A stretch of DNA of 64,000 bases from a virus (lineage: Duplodnaviria > Caudoviricetes). Below, piece after piece: positions 10,329 to 63,125 of this stretch. The notes beneath the pieces were generated by a model. That model searched no databases. It worked only from the letters and a program-made list of their open reading frames with translations, and was not told the origin of the DNA. Positions within the stretch are counted from its first letter, which is position 1. Each line of letters opens with the position of its first letter. Where the stretch lies: positions 1 to 64,000 of the IMG/VR virus record IMGVR_UViG_3300037400_002094; one strand, given 5' to 3'. Both the position numbers and the translations under genes were made by a program.

Positions 10329-13300
10329 ATGGCAGATAATGCAAGAGGAATACATGTTTCACCAGGTATATACACCAGGGAAATTGACATGACTTACGCT
10401 GTACGTAGTCTTGGTATCACAACTCTTGGACTTGCAGGTGAGACCTTGAAAGGTCCAGCCTTCCAGCCAATGGACATTGCCAACTGGCGTGAGTTCCAGG
10501 AAGTGTTTGGTGGAACAAGTACTGAGAAATTTAAGGGAAGTCAGTATCCTAAATATGAGTTGCCTTACATTGCAAAGTCATATCTAACTGAGAGTGAACA
10601 ACTTAAGGTTGTTCGTGTGCTTGGTCTTAGCGGTTACAATGCAGGTCCTGCTTGGCTTGTTACAGCAAATAACCAGGTTGTAGCTGTTATCCGTTCACGT
10701 GGTACTTATAAGTCATTCCAGACAGGTGACACAACAGTTTGTCTTTGTGAGCCTTCAAAGTATGACGCATTGAGCTATTATGTTGGTGAAAGAGCTAATT
10801 GCGATAAGTCAACAGACTGTCTTAAGAAGGGATATAATCTTTCAGCTCTTAAGATTGAACCATACATCCCAATCGATAGCGATGGAGACGAGTGCTACGG
10901 CTATGAATTGGATAGTGGGGCAAGTAGCTTCAATATTTCACAGTACAATCATGGTAGATTCAAGATTGTAGGCGTATACGGACCACAGTGCGAGAGTGCT
11001 GTTACTGAGATAATGGCAGCTGGTGTAAGTGGTACATCTGAGCAGAGATTGAGTGCTATGACAAGAGGATATTTCGAATATCCAGTATCTCTTAACCCAT
11101 TCGATAAGGAATACATACTTAGTGTACTTGGTACAAAACCATACGACGGTGACGCTTATGTATATGTTGAGTCACTTTATGACGTTGCACTTAATGAAGG
11201 TATAGCAGATGGTAGACTTACCCATATTGATAGTGGAGAAACAGCAGTTTCTGGCGTGTCTGTAAGTGGTAATACCTCTTACGGTCTTAAAGGTTTCCAG
11301 GTTTATTATACAGCAGACTATTGTCATCACGAACCTGTTACAAGCATAGTTGCTAAACCAACCAATTCTCTTAGAAGAAAGAACGTTGGACAGAGATTCC
11401 TTGCTGACAAGGATGCTGCAAGTGACAGTGCATTCACATGTGTACAGTTTGACTATAGCACAGGAAATCCTTTGATGGTAGCATATTTCTCTGGTGGTAA
11501 TCAAACAGCTTCGGCTGTTACATTGACTCCAGAAAGTGCTTATACATATAGCAATAACGTGAAAGCTACTCCTGTTAACAGTTGTGCTTTGTCTGGTTTG
11601 ACAGACGCACAGAAGATTGCTCTTGTTTCAACTCCAATGGAGTTCAATATGATGGTTGGTCAGATTTATACTGTAAGGCAGTATACCACACAGGACGGTA
11701 AGAGACACTACTATTATGGTTTCTATGACCCTAAGAGTGTTAACAAGGTAATTGATACCTATGCTTCTGGAGACACAAAGTTATCTACTGACAAACCTCT
11801 TGACCCAACCAACATGTATGGAAACCTTCTTAGTGGCGGTACAAAGGGTATGGATGCAGCTTATAAGTTCCCTAGAATAGATGCTAAGACAGAGTTCGCA
11901 AAGCTTGTTCTTAATATGTATGACGGTCTTTACTACAGGATGAATGACGCTGCTAATGATGTCGCATACGTTCAGATTGACATGAACGACTATAAGTCAG
12001 CTTACAGATACGCTTCTACACCTTGGATTGTTTCTAACTTGAAGGGTGACTACAAGCACGTAGAGATTAACAAGTTGTTCAGATTCCACACCATTTCAGA
12101 TGGTAACAACGCAAACTACGAGGTTAAGGTATCTATCGAGAACATCAGACCAGATGACGGCGTATTTGACGTAGTTGTACGTAGAATCGATGACGTGGAT
12201 GAGTCAATCATCCCACTTGAGAGATTCGGACGTTGTTCTATGACTCCTGGTGATTCTAGCTTCATTGGCTATAAGATTGGTACATTTGATGGTGTATACG
12301 AGTCTAAGTCTAAGTATATCACAGTTGAGGTTATCGAATCTACAGCTACAAGAACTTCAGTTCCTGCTGGTTTCTTGGGTTATCCAGAGCCTCAGTTTAA
12401 CGGCCTTCCAGTTAGCGGAGATTCTTACAGTGGCTTGACACTTCCTACATTGTCATATAACAGATTCTTCAATCCAGAGGTGAAGAACAGGAAGCAGTAC
12501 TTCGGACTTTCTTCTTGGGTTGGCGTTGATATCGACAACTTTACCTTCAAGGGCAACAAGGCATATATCAATAACCCAGCGTTTATGACGAATGGCTTCC
12601 ACCTTGACTCAAGACTTGATGCTCTTAATGGTGGACTTGCTGATAACCAGTATACCGTTGATGGTGAGATTGGATATAAGTTCGACTGTGTGTCTACAGA
12701 CTCTAGAACGTCAACACTTCCAGGTACTCCACTTATCGGAACAGAGCAGGAAATGTACGGTTCAATATACGAGTATGTAAACCTTCGTAAGTTCACTGTT
12801 TACTTCTACGGTGCATTCGACGGATGGGACGATTACAGAGACGAGAGAACCAATACCGATGAGTACAAGATGTCTCAGTACAGAGGCTATGTAAACCAAG
12901 GTAGTGGTGAGGGTTATGCATTCAACAGAATCCTAAACCCAGAGGTAATCGGACTTAACCAGAACGGTATCACATCTGACTGGTACGCATACCTTGCGGC
13001 AATCAGACAGTTCTCTAACCCAGAGGCAACCGATATTAACGTATTCGCTACCCCAGGTATCGACTATGTGAACCAGAAGCTTCTTGTTAACGAGGCAATC
13101 GAGATGATTGAGGAAGAGAGAGCAGACTCTATCTACGTTATAACAACCCCAGATAAGCCAAGTGGTGCTGGTGATTACGTTGATGAGATGTACACTCCAG
13201 ACGAGGCTGTTATGAACCTTGAGGATTCTGAGATTGATTCTAACTACTCTTGTACATATTACCCTTGGGTTAAGTATTTGGATGTTGACAACAGTCAGTA

Positions 13301-13859
13301 TATCTACTTGCCAGCAACGAAGGATGCTGTTAGAAACTTCGCACAGACGGATAACACATCATGGCCTTGGTTCGCACCAGCAGGTATCGAGCGTGGTAAC
13401 GTTGACTGCGTAAGGGCACACTTCATCACCAAGTTGGCAGACGAGGATGTTCTTTACGATGGTAGAATCAACCCAATCAAGACATTCGCACAGGATGGAC
13501 CTAAGATTTGGGGTCAGAAGAACCTTCAGATTAACGAGTCTCAGCTCAACCGTATTGCAGTTCGTAGACTGTTGCTCAGAATGAGAAAGTTGATTGCAAT
13601 CTCTTGTATCGGACTTATCTTCGAGCCAAATGACCCAACTGTTAAGCAGTCATTCTTGTCTACAGTAACTCCAATCATGGATAACATCAGAAGCAACAGA
13701 GGTATCTCTGATTACAGAATCGAGATTAATGATACAATCGAGTCAAGAGAGAGAAGAGAGCTTCCAGTTAAGATTTACTTCAAGCCTTACAACGCTCTTG
13801 AGTACATTGTAATCGACTTCATCCTCACACCAGAGGGAGTTTCATTCGATGATATTTAA
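10329..13859 (+). CDS. Contractile tail sheath protein (T4 gp18-like)
   Basis: N-terminal SPGIYTREID, GETLKGPAF; C-terminal WFAPAG.RG, INPI, NRIAVRRLL, FEPND. Confidence 0.96.
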   Translation: MADNARGIHVSPGIYTREIDMTYAVRSLGITTLGLAGETLKGPAFQPMDIANWREFQEVFGGTSTEKFKGSQYPKYELPYIAKSYLTESEQLKVVRVLGLSGYNAGPAWLVTANNQVVAVIRSRGTYKSFQTGDTTVCLCEPSKYDALSYYVGERANCDKSTDCLKKGYNLSALKIEPYIPIDSDGDECYGYELDSGASSFNISQYNHGRFKIVGVYGPQCESAVTEIMAAGVSGTSEQRLSAMTRGYFEYPVSLNPFDKEYILSVLGTKPYDGDAYVYVESLYDVALNEGIADGRLTHIDSGETAVSGVSVSGNTSYGLKGFQVYYTADYCHHEPVTSIVAKPTNSLRRKNVGQRFLADKDAASDSAFTCVQFDYSTGNPLMVAYFSGGNQTASAVTLTPESAYTYSNNVKATPVNSCALSGLTDAQKIALVSTPMEFNMMVGQIYTVRQYTTQDGKRHYYYGFYDPKSVNKVIDTYASGDTKLSTDKPLDPTNMYGNLLSGGTKGMDAAYKFPRIDAKTEFAKLVLNMYDGLYYRMNDAANDVAYVQIDMNDYKSAYRYASTPWIVSNLKGDYKHVEINKLFRFHTISDGNNANYEVKVSIENIRPDDGVFDVVVRRIDDVDESIIPLERFGRCSMTPGDSSFIGYKIGTFDGVYESKSKYITVEVIESTATRTSVPAGFLGYPEPQFNGLPVSGDSYSGLTLPTLSYNRFFNPEVKNRKQYFGLSSWVGVDIDNFTFKGNKAYINNPAFMTNGFHLDSRLDALNGGLADNQYTVDGEIGYKFDCVSTDSRTSTLPGTPLIGTEQEMYGSIYEYVNLRKFTVYFYGAFDGWDDYRDERTNTDEYKMSQYRGYVNQGSGEGYAFNRILNPEVIGLNQNGITSDWYAYLAAIRQFSNPEATDINVFATPGIDYVNQKLLVNEAIEMIEEERADSIYVITTPDKPSGAGDYVDEMYTPDEAVMNLEDSEIDSNYSCTYYPWVKYLDVDNSQYIYLPATKDAVRNFAQTDNTSWPWFAPAGIERGNVDCVRAHFITKLADEDVLYDGRINPIKTFAQDGPKIWGQKNLQINESQLNRIAVRRLLLRMRKLIAISCIGLIFEPNDPTVKQSFLSTVTPIMDNIRSNRGISDYRIEINDTIESRERRELPVKIYFKPYNALEYIVIDFILTPEGVSFDDI

Positions 13860-13886
13860 ATAACTCTATAAAAAAGAAGAGGAAGA

Positions 13887-14447
13887 TTACTGGTCTTCCT
13901 CTTTTTTTATGTACTTAGGGTCTACGAATTCAGTCAGCCACACACCGTTGTTTGACAGGTAGAACTTCACACCGTCCTCGTACATCTTCTTGGTATCGAT
14001 GCTGAGGAGACATGGTGTGCCGTGTCTTGAACCGACATTGGTCGCAGTCTCAGTGTCCTTGGAGAGGTGTACGTAGAGTCTGCTACCCTTCTTTATACCT
14101 TCCCTTAATATGGCATCGATTACATTACTCGAAGTACCGTGATAGAGAATTGCTGGTGGTTCAGCCTCTGTAAGACCCACATCAACATTGATTGAGTGCC
14201 CCTGCCTTGCACGTATCTTTGTATGGTCTTCATTGAACTCATACCGCTTCTTGTTGTTCGTAGCGACAATCTCTTCAATAAGTCCAACGGAATAACCCTT
14301 ATCAGAGACCAGTTCGGACACGTTTCTCCAGCCATTGTGGTCAATAAGTCCATTGTCGAATGCCTCCTTATCGTGTCTTAGAAGGAAAGCTAATTCTTTA
14401 CCCTTTGTTGTTAATATTTCCTTTTTATTCATCATTATTTTTATCAT
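13887..14447 (-). CDS. kptA: RNA 2'-phosphotransferase (Tpt1/KptA)
   Basis: LRH, KKRYE, IRARQGHS, LYHGT, YVHLS, NGVWLT motifs. Confidence 0.95.
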   Translation of the reverse strand: MIKIMMNKKEILTTKGKELAFLLRHDKEAFDNGLIDHNGWRNVSELVSDKGYSVGLIEEIVATNNKKRYEFNEDHTKIRARQGHSINVDVGLTEAEPPAILYHGTSSNVIDAILREGIKKGSRLYVHLSKDTETATNVGSRHGTPCLLSIDTKKMYEDGVKFYLSNNGVWLTEFVDPKYIKKEEDQ

Positions 14448-14551
14448 TTAAAATTAATTCTGCTGCAAAGATAAGAAAAAATTCTGAATTATCCAAGGAT
14501 GCTACCTATTTTTAACTTTATTTAATATTTATATAGAAAATAAACGTTTAT

Positions 14552-14932
14552 ATGAAAAAGGATATTAAAACTTTAGTAGAAGAATTAAATAACCTCAAGA
14601 CACAGCTCTCTGAGTCATTCATATTTGAGGACTGGCAGGGTCAAATGGGACAGCCAACTATGGGCGCACCAATGCAGCAGGAGCAACCAGACCCATCACT
14701 TGTTAAGCCACAGCAGCAGATGATGATGGGACAGGGAGACTCTGAGGAAGAGATAGCAATGCATGCACAGGAGGTTATCCAGCATGAGCCAATCATTGGT
14801 AAGATTAGAGAAACAGCAATTGAGGGCCTGAAGAAGTATGCAGACCACCCAACAAGCTCACTTTATGAGTTCTTCAAGAAAGTGTTCTTGGAGTCGGATA
14901 AGGTATTAACTGATACTGGTGGAAAGAAATAA
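14552..14932 (+). CDS. Hypothetical late protein, Q/M-rich linker
   Basis: 126-aa ORF, TATTTAT at 14526. Confidence 0.8.
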   Translation: MKKDIKTLVEELNNLKTQLSESFIFEDWQGQMGQPTMGAPMQQEQPDPSLVKPQQQMMMGQGDSEEEIAMHAQEVIQHEPIIGKIRETAIEGLKKYADHPTSSLYEFFKKVFLESDKVLTDTGGKK

Positions 14933-14947
14933 AATAACAAATCAAAT

Positions 14948-15607
14948 ATGCGTTATAATATGTACAAATATAAAAAAATTAGAACGGCAAAACTTAGAGG
15001 TGATAATGAAAAACGTTTTAATATAGATGATTATAAAAAAAACAAAGATAGCGAAAAAAACGAAAGTAGAGTCGTGAATAAGAAACTTATAAGACTAACA
15101 GAGTCTGACTTGCATAGAATCATAAAGGAGTCTGTACAGAGAATATTAAGTGAAGTGGAAGACAATTACCCAAGATTAAGTGTAGAGAAAAGTCGTCCTA
15201 GTGACTTACCTCCTGGAGACCAAGACATATACTATCCTGGTGATGTAAGTCCAGAGGTGCTAAATTCATTATCAAATGGTGATTTTGGTCAAGAAGCCAC
15301 ACAGCCTACATATAAAGAGGGTGACATTGTTTATTGGATATATGCATATAGCAGCGTTTTCCCTAACTTCTACAAGGTAGTTAAGGTAGGACCTAAGTCT
15401 ATATGGATTGCGAAAATGGGTAGTAAACGTGATAATGTAACTATGGGATACGGCAGCTGGACAGCAGTACCAGACGAAAGCAATGTTTCAGATAAGGTAA
15501 AGCGCATTGCTTTAAGACCAAACGGAAAGGCTTATATCAATTATGTTGGGCATAAACAGTCGTTAGAAGTTTGGAAAGGAAATCCAATAAACTGTACGTC
15601 TGACTAA
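14948..15607 (+). CDS. Leader-motif protein (start may be GTG 15074)
   Basis: KKLIRLTESDLHRIIKESVQRILSE, then a C-terminal SH3/KOW-like beta domain (YKEGDIVYW..FYKVVKVGPKSIWI). Confidence 0.75.
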   Translation: MRYNMYKYKKIRTAKLRGDNEKRFNIDDYKKNKDSEKNESRVVNKKLIRLTESDLHRIIKESVQRILSEVEDNYPRLSVEKSRPSDLPPGDQDIYYPGDVSPEVLNSLSNGDFGQEATQPTYKEGDIVYWIYAYSSVFPNFYKVVKVGPKSIWIAKMGSKRDNVTMGYGSWTAVPDESNVSDKVKRIALRPNGKAYINYVGHKQSLEVWKGNPINCTSD

Positions 15608-15990
15608 ATCAGCGGTGTAAACAGTATAGCTACTATAATCCAGGTGGTGAAAATCTGTGACAGATGTACAGTCTGGTCTTGAACGAGGCTTATCTTGAAC
15701 TCATTTGCTTTTAAGTTGTCAACATAACAGTGTATCATCGTATTGATTACGAAGAAAGACCATATGATAGCACTTGGGGTTGTTGTAAAAATCATTACTG
15801 GGAGCAATATCATAATAGACCATGACATTGAGTGCATGACGAGAGCCATTAGGTAATCGTTCTTATACAAGTCTCTATAACCTCTCTGTTCGAGCCACCA
15901 TTTCTTCTGCTTCATGGAAGCAAGAATGCCTTGCAGGTAGTAGTCATCTACGATGTGTGCAAGTATCATCAACATTAAAACCTTAATCAT
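15604..15990 (-). CDS. DUF3307-like membrane protein
   Basis: AHIVDDYYLQ, H..H.YVD, DQTVH; hydrophobic. Start moved to ATG 15990 because the promoter box overlaps 16009-16016. Confidence 0.8.
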   Translation of the reverse strand: MIKVLMLMILAHIVDDYYLQGILASMKQKKWWLEQRGYRDLYKNDYLMALVMHSMSWSIMILLPVMIFTTTPSAIIWSFFVINTMIHCYVDNLKANEFKISLVQDQTVHLSQIFTTWIIVAILFTPLI

Positions 15991-54328: not shown

Positions 54329-56044
54329 ATGCAAAATAAAACAACAGAAGAATTTATAAAAGAAGTTGAAGAAAGATTTCCAGGTGAAGTTTCTTTTGAG
54401 AAAACTGTCTATACTGGCGCATATTCACCGTTAATAATGACTTGTTCTAAACATGGTGATATAACAGTCGTCCCGCATAACGTCTTGAAAAATAATGCTG
54501 TTTGCGCTTGTCCTAAATGTGGAAGGGAAAAAGGTAACAATAATTCTAAACTAACAAGAGGTGGCACTAAAGTAAAATTTTTAGAGCGTTTATATAAACG
54601 TTTTCCTAACATTAAATATGATTTTTCAGAAGCTAAATATATTAATAGTAAAACTCACATGAAAGTTATATGTCATGAAAAGGATTGTAATGGTGTTGAA
54701 CACGGTGCTTGGTTCATAAAACCAAGTAATTTATATACTGGCTACGGTTGTCCTAAATGTGGAAATGAAAAAAGCACCCAAGAACGTAGAATGTCTTATG
54801 AAGATTACTGTAAATTGGTATCAGAAAAATATGGCGATATATATGAGGTTGATGAAAATTCGTATCACGATAAAAGTAGTTCAATAAAAATTCGTTGTAA
54901 AAAACACAATACTTATTTTATAGCAAACAGTAGGGAGTTTCCAAAATGTAATTCACACAAATGTCCAGAGTGTATAAAGGAGGAAATAGAAGAATATTCT
55001 AGTGCTACTAGAGATACAAATATTATAGAAGATAACGGTGTGTGGAAAAACGATTCTATTAATTTTAATGAAGAGGTGTGGGTTGATGTTTTGGGATTTG
55101 AAGGGCAATATCAATGCAGTAGTGAAGGTAGATTTAAGAATATAAGTGTTAAAAATAAGAATGGAGAAAAAGCTAGAGACAGACTAATACGTGTTAGTTT
55201 TGCAAACCGTTTAGGTACAGTGTGTTTAGGGGGAAAACTTTATTCTGCTAGCAGAAAGATATATGAAAGTTTTCATAAGATTAAACTACCTTCTGGATAT
55301 ACTCATACAATAGACCATATAGATAATAATGTTAGAAACAACAGAATATCTAATCTGAGATTAGGTGGCTCAATACGTGAGAATATGCTTAACAATCATA
55401 AAACTCGTGCGAAATTATCTGCAAGATGTGGTGCTATTGGTGTAACACCTATCTTTGATTTTGATGACTTACCAGGAGAAAAATGGGTTGATGCAATTGG
55501 GTATGAGAATTTGTACTCTGTATCTAATCTTGGAAGGGTTATGGCTAAAGAACGAACGCTAATTGAAAAAAATAGAAACGTAAAGAGAGTTAAAAGAAAG
55601 CATCTTATGAGACAATGTATCAAATATGGACAATATTACACATTGGGACTTATAGATAGTAACGGAAATCACAAAACACATTACACTCATAAGTTGGTAT
55701 ATGAAAGTTTTAATGGCAGAGTAAAGGATGGTAATCAAATTGACCATATTGATTCTAACCCCTTGAATAATAAATTAGAGAATCTTAGAGAAGTAACGCC
55801 ACTAGAAAACGTTAATAACTCAAACACTAGGAAAAAAAGGAAGTCTCCAGATACACATGCTGGAGTATTAGTAAAAAAGTTGGATTTACATAATAATGTT
55901 ATAGTCACATATATGTCTATCAGAGAGGCTGCTAGACAAAATAATGTTGCTGTTACATCTATGTATAAATGGATTAGTGGCAAGATTGACCAAAAGAGAA
56001 ATCGCCTTAAGGGATATTATTTCAAGGTTGAGGAGAATATTTAA
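54329..56044 (+). CDS. Free-standing HNH homing endonuclease (Zn-ribbon repeats + two NUMOD4-HNH modules + HTH)
   Basis: C..HG/CPKC repeats; E.WVD..G.E..Y..S..GR twice; IDHID.N..NN...NLR twice; SIREAAR. Confidence 0.9.
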   Translation: MQNKTTEEFIKEVEERFPGEVSFEKTVYTGAYSPLIMTCSKHGDITVVPHNVLKNNAVCACPKCGREKGNNNSKLTRGGTKVKFLERLYKRFPNIKYDFSEAKYINSKTHMKVICHEKDCNGVEHGAWFIKPSNLYTGYGCPKCGNEKSTQERRMSYEDYCKLVSEKYGDIYEVDENSYHDKSSSIKIRCKKHNTYFIANSREFPKCNSHKCPECIKEEIEEYSSATRDTNIIEDNGVWKNDSINFNEEVWVDVLGFEGQYQCSSEGRFKNISVKNKNGEKARDRLIRVSFANRLGTVCLGGKLYSASRKIYESFHKIKLPSGYTHTIDHIDNNVRNNRISNLRLGGSIRENMLNNHKTRAKLSARCGAIGVTPIFDFDDLPGEKWVDAIGYENLYSVSNLGRVMAKERTLIEKNRNVKRVKRKHLMRQCIKYGQYYTLGLIDSNGNHKTHYTHKLVYESFNGRVKDGNQIDHIDSNPLNNKLENLREVTPLENVNNSNTRKKRKSPDTHAGVLVKKLDLHNNVIVTYMSIREAARQNNVAVTSMYKWISGKIDQKRNRLKGYYFKVEENI

Positions 56045-56055
56045 AAAACGTTAAA

Positions 56056-56101
56056 AATCGGGATTATATTTGGTAGTCTCGATTTTTTTAGCTATCTTTG
56101 C
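56056..56101 (+). promoter_or_regulatory. Terminator/promoter cassette (copy of 54261-54306)
   Basis: 39 of 46 nt identical to the upstream copy. Confidence 0.75.
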
Positions 56102-56122
56102 ACACAAAAAAGGAGAAATAAT

Positions 56123-56299
56123 ATGTGTAAGTTTTGTGAAGGCAAGAAAACCATTGGTAGAGAAGGCCGTAAGATTTTTATGAATGAATCTGGACAACTT
56201 GTATACCTTGGAGAGCACACCATATTTGGTGATGTCATTGGTAAGGTTAAGTTCTGTCCAGAGTGCGGTAAAACAATAAAAGAAAATAAGGAAGGATAA
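56123..56299 (+). CDS. 58-aa zinc-finger protein
   Basis: Not in ORF track. MCKFC...FCPECGK; first gene after the promoter. Confidence 0.75.
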   Translation: MCKFCEGKKTIGREGRKIFMNESGQLVYLGEHTIFGDVIGKVKFCPECGKTIKENKEG

Positions 56300-56303
56300 T
56301 AAT

Positions 56304-56630
56304 ATGACTGGTATTGAAATTGTATTGTGGATTGTATTATGGATTATTGGTATTATAGGTACACTAGTCGTTTTATATTATGTCAATAATAAGGTGACAT
56401 TGGCTAATGCGGTTTGTGCAATATTATTCTGGTGGATTATATTACCAATATTTTTCATAGCAGGCGTAGCATTTGTAATTTCCTGGCTTTTCACAACGGC
56501 TAATGATATTGTCCTGGTGGAGAGAGGCGACTGGTGGCTTTCCAAGGAAGAGAGGAAGATATTAAGGGAGGAAAAGAAAAAGGAGAAGAAAGGAAAAGGT
56601 TTAACATTAAATAACATTTTAAGAAAATGA
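56304..56630 (+). CDS. Small membrane protein
   Basis: Two hydrophobic segments, basic tail, ATGA overlap with the next gene. Confidence 0.75.
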   Translation: MTGIEIVLWIVLWIIGIIGTLVVLYYVNNKVTLANAVCAILFWWIILPIFFIAGVAFVISWLFTTANDIVLVERGDWWLSKEERKILREEKKKEKKGKGLTLNNILRK

Positions 56631-58669
56631 AAAAGTTTATCGGTTTATTTATGTGTCTGGTAATGACAACAATGACCTATGCTGACACAATCGAGAGTAC
56701 AGATTCTGTAATTAACCAGACGTTGGACGAGTTCACCGTCACCTCCTTCTATCGGAGTGCTACCCCCATGTTGGGCAGTTCTGTGGACTCTAAGAACCTT
56801 GTTGCCAACAACTACGGTCAAGAGCCTTCTTGGTTGTTTGCCAAGATGCCTTCCATCTTCGCATTCAGCGACAACGGCACTGACTTTGGTTACGGCTATT
56901 TCCGCATTCGTGGTCTTGACCAGACCCGCATTAATGTAACGCTGGACGGTATGCCTTGGAATGAGGCTGAGGATTTTGGCTGTTACTTCGCTAATAGTCC
57001 CGACATTATGGCAGACGCAGGTACAATTGACGTTGGGCGTGGTACAAGCACCTATAATCCAGGAACTGCATCCTACGGTGGAAGTATCAACATCAGCTCT
57101 GTAGACCTGTTGAAGAACACCACATCATATGCTGAGTTCGGTGCAGGTAGCTTCGCATCAGCCAAGACATCTGTAAACATCAACACAGGACTCATGGGTA
57201 AGTGGGCATTACATGTGCGTGGTACATTGTCGCATACTGATGGTTATCGTGAGCACAGCCAGAACAACTCACAATCACTTGGTTTCAAGCTGGGTTACTT
57301 CATCAATGAAAAGAGTTGGGTTGACCTCTTATCTATTACAGGCTACCATACCAATGGACAGGGTTATATCGGCGTTTCTATGGAAGACCTTGAGAAGAAC
57401 CGACACCTCAATGGCTGTAGCAAGGACGAAGATGACAATTTCTTCCAGACCGTCAATAAGCTGACGTATAACAGTTGGCTTGGCGAGAAGATTCTGTTTA
57501 CCTCTTCACTCTACTGGAACATGCTGATGGGTGAGTATCGCTTTGACCTTGATAACTATATGATTCGCCTCTGTGACGAGCCTATGGAGACTGGTATGCT
57601 ATACAACTACGGTCTTAAGCAGCACATGTACGGTGGCAATGCAGCAGCACGTTACTACATCAATGATGGCTCTATTACCATTGGTACTAATATCTACAAG
57701 TTCGAGCGTGAGCACTACCTTGATGACCGTAACATCGACAAGGCACGTAACATCGACCCTGCTGAGTACTATGGCAATCGTGGTCACAAGATGGACTATG
57801 AGGTGTTCTTGAATGCTAAAAAGTCATTCGGAAACTTTACATTGTCAGCCAATGCACAGTATCGTGGCGTTAACTTCTGGTATCGTGACCTTATGAACCC
57901 GCTGGTTGAGTTTGACGAGGACACCAAGTGGAATTTCCTTAACTTCGGTGCTGATGTGAGCTACAAGATTGGTCGTCACAATGAGGTTTACTTGAAGTAC
58001 GCACGAGCCAACCGTGAACCGACACGAACCGATATGTTCGGTGGTAATGAGTGGTATCCTGGTGCGCTTACAACGACTGATGCTGAGGTTTCCAATGACG
58101 TTGAAATTGGCTGGAACATTGCTACGAAGCGTCTTAACGCCAACTTGAACCTGTTTGGCATGTTCTTCGAGAATGAGCGTTCATTGACTGGTACAATCGG
58201 TCTGAACGGTCTCCCAGAGCACGAGAAGGCAGACAATAGTCATCGTATGGGTATCGAGTTGTATGTCGATTATAATCCGTTTGCAAAATTGCATCTTATC
58301 AACAATTCTTCATATTCAAATAATAAGGTTAAGACTGACACCTATGGCACTAAGACTCATGTTCTTACTCCAGGATGTACGTTTAACCAGGATATTGAAT
58401 GGAGAGATAAGATATGGACATTTGGTATAGGATATAAGTATCGTAGCCATATGTACCTTGATATGGCTAATACTGAACGAATTCCAGACCTGTGGCAGCT
58501 TAATCTCTATGGTAGTGTTACCCTTGGTAAGTTCATCGTCAGTGGGCATGTTAATAACATTACCAATCGTGACAATATGCAGACAGGTGTGCTAACCAAT
58601 ACCAACAAGGCTCGTTTCATGCCTGATGCACCAACGAATGTGTTTACTTCAATTAAATATATGTTCTAA
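56627..58669 (+). CDS. TonB-dependent outer-membrane receptor
   Basis: Signal peptide, TonB-box-like LDEFTVTS, plug RIRGLDQTRINVTLDGMP and GGSINI, beta-barrel strands, C-terminal Phe. Confidence 0.93.
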   Translation: MKKFIGLFMCLVMTTMTYADTIESTDSVINQTLDEFTVTSFYRSATPMLGSSVDSKNLVANNYGQEPSWLFAKMPSIFAFSDNGTDFGYGYFRIRGLDQTRINVTLDGMPWNEAEDFGCYFANSPDIMADAGTIDVGRGTSTYNPGTASYGGSINISSVDLLKNTTSYAEFGAGSFASAKTSVNINTGLMGKWALHVRGTLSHTDGYREHSQNNSQSLGFKLGYFINEKSWVDLLSITGYHTNGQGYIGVSMEDLEKNRHLNGCSKDEDDNFFQTVNKLTYNSWLGEKILFTSSLYWNMLMGEYRFDLDNYMIRLCDEPMETGMLYNYGLKQHMYGGNAAARYYINDGSITIGTNIYKFEREHYLDDRNIDKARNIDPAEYYGNRGHKMDYEVFLNAKKSFGNFTLSANAQYRGVNFWYRDLMNPLVEFDEDTKWNFLNFGADVSYKIGRHNEVYLKYARANREPTRTDMFGGNEWYPGALTTTDAEVSNDVEIGWNIATKRLNANLNLFGMFFENERSLTGTIGLNGLPEHEKADNSHRMGIELYVDYNPFAKLHLINNSSYSNNKVKTDTYGTKTHVLTPGCTFNQDIEWRDKIWTFGIGYKYRSHMYLDMANTERIPDLWQLNLYGSVTLGKFIVSGHVNNITNRDNMQTGVLTNTNKARFMPDAPTNVFTSIKYMF

Positions 58670-58671
58670 TT

Positions 58672-59070
58672 ATGGATAAGTTATATATAGATGATACACA
58701 TCCTGGGTTTCTTAGAATGAAAAAAGATGATGGAACTGTTGTAAGTCATTTGGATTATAAATGTTATATCAAAAGTGAAACAAAAGAAGTATATTCAGTA
58801 TCTATCGATTTACTAGAAACCAAAGAAGGGTATAGAAATAATGGATATGCCACAAAATTGGTTAACCATTTAATCGAAAAGTACAGAGGGGTAGACATAG
58901 AACTATATTGTATACCTCTTGTTCAAAAAGATGGTTTTGACCAGGCGCAAATAGAATTATTATTGTTTTATAAACACCTTGGATTCAAAGAATTTAAAGA
59001 ATATGAAGGACGTGTATTTGGTGGAATCACCAAAAAATATTTTAAAATGGTAAGAAAAGCAGTTAATTAG
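58672..59070 (+). CDS. GNAT-family acetyltransferase
   Basis: YRNNGYATKL acetyl-CoA motif, FYKHLGF. Confidence 0.8.
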   Translation: MDKLYIDDTHPGFLRMKKDDGTVVSHLDYKCYIKSETKEVYSVSIDLLETKEGYRNNGYATKLVNHLIEKYRGVDIELYCIPLVQKDGFDQAQIELLLFYKHLGFKEFKEYEGRVFGGITKKYFKMVRKAVN

Positions 59071-59074
59071 TATT

Positions 59075-59123
59075 AAAAAATGAGGTAATCGTTTGGTTAT
59101 CTCATTTTTTTTATGTAAATTTG
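59075..59123 (+). promoter_or_regulatory. Terminator/promoter cassette
   Basis: ATGAGGTAA/TTATCTCAT stem, TTTG at 59092-59095, 20 nt to TAAATTTG. Confidence 0.7.
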
Positions 59124-59148
59124 CAGGTGAAATAAAATTTAATTAATT

Positions 59149-59646
59149 ATGTTAGTTTGGGCTTTTAATAAAAATAATAAATCATTTAAATTGTGCGGAA
59201 CTTATGAAACAATGTTTCATACAGATAGAAAAGGTGATGAGAAAAGTCGTGTTTATATAAATGAATGCGATTATGAAATACCTAAGGATGTTGTGGAGAG
59301 TCATTTTTCTGATTTACAGTTTAATCCTTTTACAGAGTACAAATTCATTGTTAATAAAGAGAAATACGATGAATATAATTTCTGGGGAAGCTTTCCATAT
59401 GGTGGTTTTTTTGTAAGTGCTTGTGTTGTTAATAATGATAACGAAATAATCAAGGACGGATTTTACCCCCAATCAAATAGTTGTGAAATACGGATTTTAG
59501 AGGAATTTTTTAATTGTATCGGATATGATAGCGTTATTGGTAGGTTTAATTGGCGAGAAGTAAAAGAATATGAGGAAAATGGTTATAAACTAGTTTTATG
59601 GTATGGGGCAGCTAAAAATAATGCAATGTTTGTAAAAGAAAGGTAA
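59149..59646 (+). CDS. Hypothetical protein
   Basis: 165-aa AT-rich ORF. Confidence 0.7.
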   Translation: MLVWAFNKNNKSFKLCGTYETMFHTDRKGDEKSRVYINECDYEIPKDVVESHFSDLQFNPFTEYKFIVNKEKYDEYNFWGSFPYGGFFVSACVVNNDNEIIKDGFYPQSNSCEIRILEEFFNCIGYDSVIGRFNWREVKEYEENGYKLVLWYGAAKNNAMFVKER

Positions 59647-59648
59647 AA

Positions 59649-60734
59649 ATGAAAATAGGAATTTGTTTCGGTGGGTATTGCCCAATGCATCGTGGACACC
59701 TCGATGCCATCATGAGGGCTAAGAAGGAGAATGACAAGGCATTTGTCATCGTCTGCGGGTACGACAATGAGGAACGTGCTGGCAACATCAACATGACGTT
59801 GAAGGAGCGCACGGCAATTGTACGTAAAATATTCGAGAAGGACGAGCTTATTACTGTATTGTCCATTAACGACACAGAGCTTGGTATTGACGAGAGTATG
59901 TGTGATAACAACTGGATTGTATGGCAAGAGAAGGTTAAAGAACTAGTTGGTTTTGACAAATACGATTTGTATACTAAATATACTTGGTATGTTGCAGAGC
60001 CTTATTACAAGGAAATGCTGGAGAAACATAACCTTCTTAATGCTCAAACCACACTGATTGATAAGGTTGTGCCTGTAAGTGGTACTGCCATCCGTGAGAA
60101 TCCATTGAAGTACTGGAAGTACATTGTTAGGGAGTACCGAAACAACCTGTGTCATAACATCCTTATTACTGGCACTGCTTCTGAGGGTAAGACAACCCTA
60201 GTGCGTGACATTTCCACGTACTTTGGTATTGACCACTCTGAGGAGTATGGAAGGGATGATTTGCTTGCCAAGTGTAAGACCGACACAGACCTTACGGCAG
60301 ATGATTTCATAGACTTCCTTATTGGTCAGAGTGTGGACGTATGTAAGCGTGTAAGGAACAACGACCAGGGTGTGTTTATCTCTGATACTGACAACCTTGT
60401 TACGCTGATGTATGCACTGGCTTATACAGAAGACCCAAACGTGCCTATCACTAAGGAAGAGTACGATACAAAGGTGCTTCCAGCAGCTAAGTCACTTGCA
60501 GGTCGTGTGAAGTGGGATAAGATTTTCCTGCTGCCTCCAAAGAATAAGTTTGTGGACGATGGCAGTCGCTACATGAAGCAGTCGTCTATCGACGAGCGTA
60601 TTGCCAACTTCAACAAGCTGGTTGAGCTGCTTAAGGAGTTTGGTCTCTGGGAGAAGGTGAAGATTCTTGACGGCGATTTCCTGTCAAATTTCAACAAGTT
60701 AAAGGATTACATTAACAGTTTGTATAATGAGTAA
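59649..60734 (+). CDS. nadR: NadR-like bifunctional NMN adenylyltransferase/ribosylnicotinamide kinase (no HTH)
   Basis: FGGYCPMHRGH (HxGH), VSGTAIRENP.KYW, P-loop GTASEGKT, EEYGR, DTD, FVDDG.R. Confidence 0.88.
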   Translation: MKIGICFGGYCPMHRGHLDAIMRAKKENDKAFVIVCGYDNEERAGNINMTLKERTAIVRKIFEKDELITVLSINDTELGIDESMCDNNWIVWQEKVKELVGFDKYDLYTKYTWYVAEPYYKEMLEKHNLLNAQTTLIDKVVPVSGTAIRENPLKYWKYIVREYRNNLCHNILITGTASEGKTTLVRDISTYFGIDHSEEYGRDDLLAKCKTDTDLTADDFIDFLIGQSVDVCKRVRNNDQGVFISDTDNLVTLMYALAYTEDPNVPITKEEYDTKVLPAAKSLAGRVKWDKIFLLPPKNKFVDDGSRYMKQSSIDERIANFNKLVELLKEFGLWEKVKILDGDFLSNFNKLKDYINSLYNE

Positions 60735-61392
60735 GAGTTTTTCGGACATAGTGAGGCTTGAGGGTACTCATGCTGGCGTGAATTTCAGCGTGTTCTTCAT
60801 CCTTCTTGGCGTGTTGACACAGGGACTTGCATTCAAATTCAGTGGCGGTAGTGAGTTGTCATTGATTAGCGGATGCCTTGGTATCATATCCGTTGTATTG
60901 TGCAGTCAGAGAAAGATTTCATTCTATATCTTTGGTTTTGCACAGCTTATCACATATGTCATATTATGTGTGAATGAGAAACTGTATGGAGAAATAGCCG
61001 AGAATGCTTTTTATTTCGTCACAATGCTCTTCGGATTGTTCCATTGGATAAAGCACTACAATGAGAATGAAATAGCCGTAAAGACGAGAAAAATGACTCA
61101 CTTGCAGAATGTGTGGGTATTCATAGCTACTGTGTTCGGAACGCTTATGTTGTACACTGGATTAATGAGAACTGATGACAGCCAGCCACTAATGGATGCA
61201 ATTACCACTCTTCCAGCGTTTGTAGCCCAAATCCTTATGATATTCAGATTCAAGGAGAGTTGGTTCTACTGGTTTATAATTGATGTTGGTAGTATTATAA
61301 TGTGGAGTATTGCTGGTGACTGGTGTATGGTATTGCAGTTTGTATTCTGGACTATCAATTGTATCTATGGCTATTATAAGTGGAGTGATTGA
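60727..61392 (+). CDS. pnuC: PnuC-family vitamin/nicotinamide riboside transporter
   Basis: Multi-pass membrane protein; LYGE, G..HW, P.MDA.TT, AQ.LM, ESW.YW.IID, YGYYKW. Confidence 0.9.
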   Translation: MSKSFSDIVRLEGTHAGVNFSVFFILLGVLTQGLAFKFSGGSELSLISGCLGIISVVLCSQRKISFYIFGFAQLITYVILCVNEKLYGEIAENAFYFVTMLFGLFHWIKHYNENEIAVKTRKMTHLQNVWVFIATVFGTLMLYTGLMRTDDSQPLMDAITTLPAFVAQILMIFRFKESWFYWFIIDVGSIIMWSIAGDWCMVLQFVFWTINCIYGYYKWSD

Positions 61393-61394
61393 CT

Positions 61395-62258
61395 ATGATT
61401 AAGTATAATGTAAACACATGTGACCAGATTGAGAATGAATTGCAGATTCATTTTACAAAGCTGTGTCCTAATAAATGCCCATTCTGTGTAGATGCGTTGA
61501 ATAAGGGACTCCATAATGCGATTAAGAGACCAGATGTGAATGCCATCTATCAGAGGGTATATGAGAACAGGGGTAAGATTAACTCTATCTGTATTAGTGG
61601 TGGAGAGCCTATGCTTTTCATAGATGATGTGTTGGATTTAATTCGTAAGGTTAAGTCCAGCACCAACCTTAAGGTATATGTCATTACATCAGTGCCAGAA
61701 CAGTGTTACCAGTACAAGTATGCGTTCTACAATATCCTTGATGAGTGTGATGGCATGGCAATATCGCCTCAGCACTATAATGAGGAGATTGGAGACCAGA
61801 TACGTGGTCATAAGTCAACATTCGACAGACAGGGATTCTATCGCAGCATCGAGGACAAGAGCAAGATTACCATGAACATCAATATGGTGAAGCCATACTT
61901 GTGTGACAAGGACGAAATCTGCAAGTGTATCGAGCATTATAACCAGATGGGTTTCAAGAACATCAAGCTGGTTGAGCTGTTCGACAGACCAGATATGTTT
62001 GTTTCGTTTGAGAAGACGTTTGGTGTGAAACTAAAGTCACCGTTTGCACACGGTTGTAAGACCGAGTTTGATATTACGCCATATATACCTTCGTATGATG
62101 GCAAGTTCATCCTAAAGAGAACGTGTTTCCTTGTGAACAAGTGTGTTCACGCTACCTTGGCTGATACACTGAAGGCTGCTACCAGGAACATCTTTGGGAA
62201 GGAATACTACTTTGGTGTCGTCTATGAGGATGGAAGTCTTCATCCTTATTGGATTTGA
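61395..62258 (+). CDS. Radical SAM enzyme
   Basis: CPNKCPFC, ISGGEPML. Confidence 0.9.
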   Translation: MIKYNVNTCDQIENELQIHFTKLCPNKCPFCVDALNKGLHNAIKRPDVNAIYQRVYENRGKINSICISGGEPMLFIDDVLDLIRKVKSSTNLKVYVITSVPEQCYQYKYAFYNILDECDGMAISPQHYNEEIGDQIRGHKSTFDRQGFYRSIEDKSKITMNINMVKPYLCDKDEICKCIEHYNQMGFKNIKLVELFDRPDMFVSFEKTFGVKLKSPFAHGCKTEFDITPYIPSYDGKFILKRTCFLVNKCVHATLADTLKAATRNIFGKEYYFGVVYEDGSLHPYWI

Positions 62259-62290
62259 CGGATATTTATAAACATAAAACATATAAGGTT

Positions 62291-62626
62291 ATGGGAAAAC
62301 TTATTCTAATTGAGGAAGGCGAGCTTAAGAAAATGATAAGCGAAGCTGTCACCAATGCGGTTGATGGTATCACTAAGAAGATTACGACTCGTGCAGCAAG
62401 GGCAAACAGAAACATGCTGTTTGTGCCTCCTGTTGTTAATCCTTTTGACGATGATGACGATGATGACTGTGGTTACAGTTGTGGTAGTAGTCGTTCTGTA
62501 GGAGGATGCGGTTCTGATAGCCATTATGACTACAGCTATGGTGGTTGTGGGTCTGGCGGTGGGGGTTGTGGCTCTTCATCACCTTCATACGGTGGTTGTG
62601 GTTATAATGATAGTGGCCGTTGTTAA
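62291..62626 (+). CDS. Leader-motif protein with Asp run and Gly/Cys/Ser/Tyr-rich tail
   Basis: ATG 62291 after TATTTAT at 62263; LILIEEGELKKMISEAV; D7; four GGCG. Confidence 0.75.
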   Translation: MGKLILIEEGELKKMISEAVTNAVDGITKKITTRAARANRNMLFVPPVVNPFDDDDDDDCGYSCGSSRSVGGCGSDSHYDYSYGGCGSGGGGCGSSSPSYGGCGYNDSGRC

Positions 62627-62735
62627 GAAATTATTTTACTCTATAAAATGCAGTCAGAAATGGCTGCATTTTTTGTTTATATTACATCGAAAAAAGTTAA
62701 ATTTTATATACTTATAGGTAATAATTTATGATATA

Positions 62736-63125
62736 ATGGCTAAGAAACAGTTTTTTGGTGTTAAGTTCCCATTTTTGACAGATAATGGGAGACATTTTTA
62801 CGTTGCTGCGAACGAAACCATCGCAGACAAGGTAAAGAGTCAGCTCATGCATATTGTGTTTACACCTAAGGGTCAGAGAATTAGGAATCCAGAGTTTGGA
62901 ACAGACCTCATCAAGTTCATATTCGACCAGAATGATGGTACTACTTGGGAGGCTGTTAAGACTGAGGTTAGTGAATCAGTTGCAAGATGGTCTAATAACC
63001 TGTCTTTGAAGGAGATAAAAGTAGTGAAGAGTGAGGAAGACGAATCACAGGTATTCGTTAGGATTGACTATAGCGTTACAGAAGGTAACAAGGTGACTAA
63101 TGACAGTATAGTAGTAGAGATATAA
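62736..63125 (+). CDS. Baseplate wedge subunit (T4 gp25-like)
   Basis: G.KFPF, TPKGQRIRNPEFGTDL..FIFD. Confidence 0.92.
   Translation: MAKKQFFGVKFPFLTDNGRHFYVAANETIADKVKSQLMHIVFTPKGQRIRNPEFGTDLIKFIFDQNDGTTWEAVKTEVSESVARWSNNLSLKEIKVVKSEEDESQVFVRIDYSVTEGNKVTNDSIVVEI

Follow-up and report, generated by a model that had tools for sequence, protein, structure and literature searches.

A TonB-dependent transporter linked to PnuC and NadR in phage DNA: a candidate outer-membrane front end for NAD+ supply

Why should a phage carry an intact gene for an outer-membrane transporter, and what would such a protein bring into the cell? The question is raised by the IMG/VR virus record IMGVR_UViG_3300037400_002094 (Duplodnaviria; Caudoviricetes), of which we analyzed the first 64 kb (the window), taken from a single contig of 93,892 bp. 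Three genes on its plus strand are at issue. They encode a TonB-dependent outer-membrane transporter of 680 aa (the receptor, 56627-58669), a bifunctional NadR of 361 aa (59649-60734) and a PnuC-type nicotinamide riboside (NR) channel of 221 aa (60727-61392). An earlier note on this DNA had placed the genes at these coordinates and proposed that together they refill nicotinamide adenine dinucleotide (NAD+) from outside the cell. The list of open reading frames (ORFs) and searches of Pfam, PHROGs and NCBIfam confirmed that all three are present and intact on the plus strand, and that nadR and pnuC overlap, by 8 nt. The best explanation, to which we assign a probability of about 0.72, is that the receptor, PnuC and NadR act as an NAD+ supply line, with three steps, in a Gram-negative host of the Bacteroidota.

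The receptor reads as a signal peptide (MKKFIGLFMCLVMTTMTYA, followed by DT), a TonB-box-like motif, a plug, a beta-barrel and a terminal Phe. The plug is its sole Pfam match (PF07715, residues 52-152, 33.2 bits against a cut-off of 23.9), and a single-sequence search of PDB sequences returned no match. The signal peptide is kept in the relatives of the receptor, the plug and the TonB-box region are conserved family-wide, and the C-terminal Phe is invariant across the aligned relatives. An AlphaFold2 model built on an alignment of 97 sequences reached a mean predicted local distance difference test score (pLDDT) of 91.8 and a predicted template-modelling score of 0.89, with the plug above 90; it supersedes an earlier run on 13 sequences, in which only the barrel was modelled and the plug was not (pLDDT 66). 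The model is disordered only at residues 17-39, the low-confidence N-terminal stretch that holds the TonB-box-like LDEFTVTS (residues 33-40, assigned by motif judgement only).

A Foldseek search with the whole chain identified PqqU (9c4o) as the best match, with template-modelling (TM) scores of 0.80/0.82. PqqU, FecA and YncD matched at TM 0.78-0.82 over about 675 columns, and the set including FhuA and BtuB ranged from 0.66 to 0.82. Likewise, a profile of the 97 relatives searched against solved structures matched YncD/PqqU with an E-value of 1.5e-28, in addition to about 45 other transporters. The modelled fold is that of a complete TonB-dependent transporter, and the earlier description of the receptor as full length agrees with this confident whole-chain model. 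The receptor is not of the SusC type, since it has 680 aa, whereas SusC-type proteins have an N-terminal extension and a length of about 1000 aa, and since it has no SusD-like neighbour; the SusD family gave no match among the genes next to it, a 108-aa membrane ORF and a GNAT-family gene. The source annotations read 'iron complex outer-membrane receptor'.

The phage NadR combines a nicotinamide mononucleotide (NMN) adenylyltransferase (NMNAT) with a ribosylnicotinamide kinase. It contains a CTP_transf_like domain (PF01467, residues 6-150) and an AAA_28 domain (PF13521, residues 171-333), and it matches phrog_3462 with an E-value of 1e-61. The match to PRK08099 spans positions 65-406 of 411, from which we conclude that the helix-turn-helix (HTH) domain is missing, as the earlier note had stated. 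The protein starts directly at the NMNAT motif GGYCPMHRGH (HxGH), and it also has a VSGTAIR motif (SxTxxR-type) and the Walker A sequence GTASEGKTT. The best solved relative, NadR of L. lactis (6gye, E 8e-45), aligns end to end over 342 residues with the catalytic motifs in register. More distant is the NadR-like chain of 9x6f (E 2e-16), which we take to be the phage protein Bas30_86 discussed below. PnuC was identified by PF04973 (143 bits), phrog_1880 and the equivalog TIGR01528 (119 bits, cut-off 42.45), and it matches PnuC of N. mucosa (4qtn) with an E-value of 4e-24. Judged by these sequences, both NadR and PnuC look functional.

Is the receptor tied to these two genes, or is it a chance neighbour? 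A tblastn search of GenBank phages with the receptor returned 22 records, comprising 15 Lak megaphages, 4 uncultured phages of 630-735 kb and 3 faecal fragments; in the Lak megaphages of Prevotella, the receptor identity is 39-40%. NadR and PnuC were found downstream and on the same strand at every phage locus where the receptor relative is at least 37% identical and the sequence extends far enough beyond it. These loci, from IMG/VR and metagenome contigs, are about ten contigs of the window's family, L016, L017-L020, L023, L024, L026, L036, L037, L045 and Lak-like contigs, and the linkage as such reaches receptors of about 30% identity. The order and spacing of the genes vary, with the receptor directly adjacent to the others or with up to three small ORFs in between. 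In L024 the order is receptor-PnuC-NadR, with a gene of the nicotinate phosphoribosyltransferase (NAPRTase) family added. In Lak-like contigs the receptor lies about 5 kb from NadR/PnuC, with a DUF4407 gene between, and in three of the huge phages (LR756501, LR756502 and LR745206, 630-735 kb) the receptor, PnuC and a NadR-type kinase stand in a row. One phage-like contig (L029) has a receptor relative and neither NadR nor PnuC.

In a quick maximum likelihood tree, midpoint-rooted for drawing only, the receptors of gut phages formed one clade (24 rows) with an approximate likelihood-ratio support (SH-aLRT) of 100, and NadR and PnuC accompany every member whose context is known. The receptors of the three environmental megaphages are placed apart from this clade, which hints at more than one capture by phages. 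NadR homologues were found in 440 GenBank phage records from many hosts, as compared to 22 records with the receptor; the receptor is thus a rare add-on of a subset of these phages, and its restricted distribution fits an add-on specific for the host envelope.

Two observations concern individual loci. The Lak-like locus L038 (10001-18977), in which TAG is read as Q, has receptor, NadR and PnuC ORFs without recoded TAG codons, while neighbouring ORFs have 3-13; a TAG-free trio might fit expression ahead of a code switch. When 185,579 species genomes were scanned for the motifs of the phage clade, a single 41.6-kb contig was returned, a result that is uninformative on the bacterial distribution. 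This contig (JAFRDD010000051.1, L020), from the metagenome-assembled genome of a 'Clostridia bacterium' of goat ileum, carries a phage-type run of receptor, NadR, PnuC and radical S-adenosylmethionine (SAM) enzyme and is probably a misbinned phage.

The linkage is also present in bacteria. One receptor relative, P0430 (about 32% identity), has family members in Flammeovirga, Fulvivirga, Catalinimonas and other Bacteroidota, where the contigs reach lengths of 7.7 Mb. The receptor gene of Flammeovirgaceae bacterium SG7u.111 is followed by PnuC and a NadR-like protein of 337 aa, amid ordinary cellular genes. In Catalinimonas alkaloidigena, the trio is located directly behind a regulator gene with NUDIX and WHD_NrtR domains, and genes for an ADP-ribosylglycohydrolase and a NADAR protein are nearby. 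NrtR is a Nudix-related regulator of NAD metabolism, and the paper describing it does not list a receptor-bearing operon (PMC2330246). This linkage in bacteria, with the position behind NrtR, is the strongest independent pointer to an NAD precursor as the substrate of the receptor family. A Chitinophagales contig (L021) that apparently has no PnuC is uninformative, as it ends about 950 bp past the receptor gene. Altogether, examination of the neighbourhoods, which the earlier note had called for, showed a linkage of the three genes well in excess of chance, which extends over the window's phage family, Lak and other huge phages, and Cytophagales chromosomes.

Could the receptor nevertheless import a compound outside NAD metabolism, for example thiamine or a different vitamin, a siderophore or a carbohydrate, and merely happen to lie near nadR and pnuC? 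Thiamine uptake loci of Bacteroidota consist of a receptor under control of a thiamine pyrophosphate (TPP) riboswitch, PnuT and thiamine pyrophosphokinase, and the earlier reader had pointed to a likeness of the plug to such thiamine-linked receptors. Other pointers in the same direction are the source labels of an iron-complex receptor, the position of the receptor in its own transcription unit (see below), and a homologue in LR745206 annotated as SusC for carbohydrate uptake (PMC9723777). Unlike the Bacteroidota thiamine locus, the phage cluster has neither the riboswitch nor the kinase. An Rfam search of 55000-63000 at E-values up to 1 detected no TPP or other riboswitch, and none scored above the gathering thresholds in nine related phage and bacterial loci. 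No thiamine pyrophosphokinase domain was found in the cluster with Pfam, and the partner kinase is of the AAA_28/NadR type at all phage and bacterial loci examined. Moreover, the linkage to PnuC and NadR holds down to about 30% receptor identity and recurs in bacteria by NrtR, the receptor is not SusC-like, and its best structural match is an importer of a small cofactor, PqqU. An import function outside NAD metabolism is thus very unlikely. The thiamine caveat of the earlier note is weakened by the missing riboswitch and thiamine kinase, by the NadR-type partner and by the single operon behind NrtR; it stands in so far as the substrate is something that we infer.

The structural matches also bear on a quite different role, in which the receptor would serve in conflicts at the cell surface, by excluding superinfecting phages, by acting as a decoy for phages or bacteriocins, or by replacing a host receptor. 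TonB-dependent transporters are common receptors of phages and colicins, and complexes of FhuA with pb5 of phage T5 and with Llp were among the Foldseek matches. Such a role would not account for a link to PnuC and NadR that persists in phages as well as in bacteria, and the conserved plug and TonB-box region are those expected of an active transporter. We therefore regard it as highly improbable.

According to the supply-line explanation, the receptor would be exported by the host Sec system, inserted by the host beta-barrel assembly machinery (BAM) and energised by the host TonB-ExbBD complex. At the outer membrane it would import a pyridine nucleoside or nucleotide, most likely NR and possibly NMN or NAD+. 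PnuC would let NR cross the inner membrane by facilitated diffusion, the kinase domain of NadR would trap it as NMN, and the NMNAT domain would adenylate NMN to NAD+. The receptor front end would have been taken from a Bacteroidota receptor-PnuC-NadR operon. Bacteroidota rely heavily on TonB-dependent transporters for vitamins, and for this reason a phage of Bacteroidota may need a receptor of its own. The pay-off would be an NAD+ pool raised or restored during infection, most plausibly against NADase defences and also for NAD+-using enzymes of the phage.

How would the genes be expressed? A terminator-like hairpin with a U-run and, in its 3' part and tail, a promoter (-33 TTTG, -7 TATCTTTG) is located at 56053-56100 on the plus strand (hairpin at about 56053-56087, -15.1 kcal/mol, z -4.9; promoter motif at 56069-56100). 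A second hairpin of this kind with a Bacteroidota-type promoter (-7 TAAATTTG) is located at 59075-59123 on the same strand (hairpin at about 59075-59110, -16.1 kcal/mol, z -8.5; promoter motif at 59092-59123). This second combination of terminator and promoter splits the span into two predicted transcription units, of which unit 1 comprises ORF58, ORF108, the receptor and the GNAT gene, and unit 2 comprises ORF165, NadR, PnuC, the radical SAM enzyme and ORF125. Unit 2 is closed by an intrinsic-terminator-like hairpin of 12 pairs with a T-run (62645-62672, plus strand; -15.2 kcal/mol, z -4.5). The earlier note was right about the three genes of the span and made no mention of the GNAT gene, of ORF165 or of the cassette of terminator and promoter between the units. 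Metagenome contigs joining 56101 to 59092 or 59145 were set aside; these joints fall within the repeated promoter cassettes, and repeats or rearranged relatives account for them best.

The elements -33 TTTG and -7 TAnnTTTG are the consensus of Bacteroides sigma-A promoters. The combined motif was found 11 times on the plus strand, as compared to 1.5 times expected from shuffled sequences. A stereotyped cassette of hairpin, T-run and -7 box such as TATCTTTG occurs at eight sites between 37297 and 59123, nearly identical in the four most alike. It precedes non-structural genes, among them those for gp32, the 5'-3' exonuclease and an HNH endonuclease, and it is also found ahead of 37326, 44602, 47904, ORF58 and ORF165. 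Since these promoters are of the host type and shared with replication genes, the early timing assumed in the earlier note is plausible; the Bacteroidota-type cassettes are there, also ahead of the gp32 and exonuclease genes, and early expression is what they would suggest.

Several points weigh against an NAD+ supply line. The receptor family, phage and bacterial members alike, is uncharacterised, and its proposed substrate is deduced rather than demonstrated. NR is a molecule of about 255 Da, and one so small might not need a TonB-dependent transporter, which would leave NMN, NAD+ or some other compound; alternatively, the real substrate of the receptor may be the larger NMN or NAD+. The scheme requires that useful amounts of an outer-membrane protein are assembled within a lytic cycle. 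In the window, the receptor gene does not share a transcription unit with nadR-pnuC, and in Lak phages it lies about 5 kb away from them; the linkage may stem in part from the shared ancestry of related giant phages and not from repeated selection. NadR scored 195 bits against TIGR01526, under the cut-off of 341 bits, and also fell below the curated cut-off of PRK08099, so that it is a divergent member of its family. Finally, contigs of relatives (85-99% likeness) in a sheep-gut RNA library cover parts of the receptor gene, nadR, the nadR-pnuC junction and pnuC to the radical SAM gene; we do not count them as proof of transcription, as this is one library, which may contain DNA.

A further question is what the phage would gain from the NAD+. 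The same chemistry could serve as general metabolic support for the long infection by a giant phage and for its NAD+-consuming enzymes. The window phage encodes one such enzyme, an RNA 2'-phosphotransferase of the Tpt1/KptA family (13887-14447, minus strand; PF01885, 144.8 bits), located amid structural genes. In L016, a Tpt1 gene lies a few kb from the run of receptor, NadR and PnuC, beside a gene for an NAD-dependent DNA ligase, and the NAPRTase-family gene of L024 is in line with the same purpose. A study of gut jumbo phages argued for phage-run NAD+ synthesis and use (PMC11662467), and bacteria keep the same operon for ordinary salvage. On the other side, the phage pathway NARP3 acts specifically against NAD+ depletion by Sir2-HerA (PMC13464706). 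Metabolic support as the main purpose is possible, although in our estimate the less likely alternative. It overlaps with the supply line in all but the selective reason, and the present data do not separate the two purposes.

If the NAD+ supply line exists as outlined, vitamin-B3 ribosides in the surroundings could decide how phage infections in the gut turn out. Phage-encoded outer-membrane transporters are rare and have had no role assigned so far; the one earlier mention that we found guessed at carbohydrate uptake. The tie to PnuC and NadR offers a substrate that can be tested for a transporter family so far uncharacterised, members of which are also encoded in Bacteroidota chromosomes. 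Tentatively, and with somewhat more doubt than confidence, we suggest that the phage receptor and its Bacteroidota relatives represent a new substrate class of TonB-dependent transporters, for NR and perhaps NMN or NAD+, which giant gut phages would install in the outer membrane of the host to scavenge NAD precursors from the gut lumen. The escape of these phages from NADase immunity would then depend on the vitamin-B3 content of the environment.

The other genes of the two units are less constant. Unit 1 starts with a protein of 58 aa that has two CxxC pairs and, by eye, resembles a zinc ribbon (56123-56299, plus strand); it is conserved at 70-90% within the window's phage family (L001, L002 and L026). 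It is followed by a small hydrophobic protein of 108 aa with membrane helices by eye (56304-56630, plus strand), the stop codon of which overlaps the start of the receptor gene (ATGA) and which had no match in Pfam, PHROG or NCBIfam. The idea that the small ORF upstream of the receptor is a general partner was rejected, since its conservation does not reach beyond the window's phage family and the corresponding ORFs of other clades are not homologous. The last gene of unit 1 encodes a GNAT-family acetyltransferase of 132 aa (58672-59070, plus strand; Acetyltransf_1, 26.4 bits). A tblastn search detected no homologue of it in any related locus, and metagenome contigs of relatives join 58591 to 59654; by these comparisons the GNAT gene appears to be a variable passenger. 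More generally, the slot between the receptor and nadR (58672-59646) is variable, and in other clades it is occupied by a T4_Y16D-family ORF or other small ORFs.

Unit 2 starts with a 165-aa protein (59149-59646, plus strand) that had no match in Pfam, PHROGs, NCBIfam, PDB sequences or the ESM Atlas; homologues are present in L002, L007 and, at a different place, L001. Downstream of pnuC are genes for the radical SAM enzyme (61389-62258, plus strand; Radical_SAM, 37 bits) and its 125-aa partner ORF (62249-62626, plus strand), the last of the unit. Homologues of the radical SAM gene lie 3' of PnuC or NadR in many, not all, related loci (L017, L026, L037, L045, L050 and L051), with identities among distantly related phages down to 26-47%; none was found in Lak-like loci, in L016, L023, L024 and L036, or in the bacterial operons. 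Just upstream of unit 1 is a homing-endonuclease-like gene (HNH/NUMOD4/DUF723, 571 aa, 54329-56044), which is present in L001, partial in L007 and missing from several relatives, and is thus probably mobile.

The gene set is that of a T4-like phage with a contractile tail, as judged from the predicted proteins: a family B DNA polymerase, a sheath protein of 1,176 aa, a DnaB-like helicase, NrdD and NrdG, a 5'-3' exonuclease, a gp19-like tube protein, gp32, a thymidine kinase, a RecA/UvsX-like protein and gp25-like baseplate proteins. The contig ends within an open ORF of 1,079 aa (90655-93892; its counterpart in L048 is at 12655-15891), and the gene order recurs in close relatives, the contigs of which measure 110, 242 and 422 kb. 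The open ORF at the 3' end and the relatives on the 242- and 422-kb contigs indicate that these 94 kb are probably just part of a phage genome of far greater size. Near-identical DNA comes from gut metagenomes of cattle and sheep. Host-type promoters and kinship with the Lak phages of Prevotella point to a Bacteroidota host, and the source is probably a large rumen phage.

How does this locus compare with known systems? By both profile and structure, the best match of the receptor is PqqU/YncD, the importer of pyrroloquinoline quinone (PQQ) in E. coli (9c4o, 6v81), which is likewise compact (about 680-700 aa) and dedicated to a small cofactor. However, the identity is only 16-17%, and substrate and gene context differ; therefore, transport of PQQ by the receptor is not implied. 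Among phages, a 'TonB-dependent receptor (SusC)' of the marine megaphage Mar_Mega_1 and of LR745206 was described in 2021, with carbohydrate uptake as the suggested function (PMC9723777). The LR745206 gene is homologous to the window receptor (30.6% identity), but it is located directly before PnuC and a NadR-type kinase and is not SusC-like in size or partners.

The Bacteroidota operon contains the same three families in the same orientation, with a full-length relative of the receptor (about 30-33% identity). It differs in its order, which is receptor-PnuC-NadR in bacteria and receptor, NadR, PnuC in the phage, and in its setting, since the bacterial genes are beside a cellular regulator gene, whereas the phage genes are behind phage promoter cassettes; in addition, the gut-phage receptors form a clade of their own. 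No paper on the bacterial operon or on the receptor-PnuC-NadR trio of phages was found in the literature searched.

NARP1 and NARP2, including NadV/NatV of KVP40, are likewise phage pathways that rebuild NAD+ and for which a role against NADase immunity is proposed or shown; they start from ADP-ribose and nicotinamide, or proceed via nicotinamide phosphoribosyltransferase (NAMPT) and NMNAT (bioRxiv 10.1101/2024.02.11.579819). These pathways use intracellular breakdown products, whereas the window module is predicted to import an external precursor. No NAMPT/NAPRTase or phosphoribosyl pyrophosphate synthetase-like family was found among the approximately 50 window ORFs scanned, a set that does not exhaustively cover small ORFs and the region of 64-94 kb (mostly very large structural ORFs). 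If the receptor works as proposed, it would extend the NAD+ arms race of NARP1, NARP2 and NARP3 to Bacteroidota of gut and rumen and their giant phages, including the Lak megaphages.

The closest known system is NARP3. Yan et al. (Sci Adv, August 2026; PMC13464706) showed that the PnuC-like Bas30_87 and the HTH-less NadR-like Bas30_86 of phage TrudiRoth import NR and make NAD+, and that this pair restores the NAD+ depleted by Sir2-HerA (PDB 9x6f/9x6h). In addition, pnuC/nadR clusters without a receptor have been noted in gut jumbo phages, in a 2024 Microbiome paper (PMC11662467). The earlier note's view of a distinct route is therefore superseded for the inner-membrane part, and novelty is limited to the outer-membrane receptor and does not extend to the pathway. 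As in NARP3, the window has adjacent, co-oriented genes for PnuC and an HTH-less NadR, predicted to convert NR to NMN and NAD+. In contrast, NARP3 has two genes, is found in phages of Enterobacteriaceae, and is described in a paper that mentions neither 'TonB' nor 'outer membrane' (PMC13464706), and the window NadR is closer to that of L. lactis. The window locus, like those of many giant gut phages, has a TonB-dependent transporter in addition, and since the PnuC and NadR part is already published, the route in the window is best described as NARP3 with a putative outer-membrane front end.

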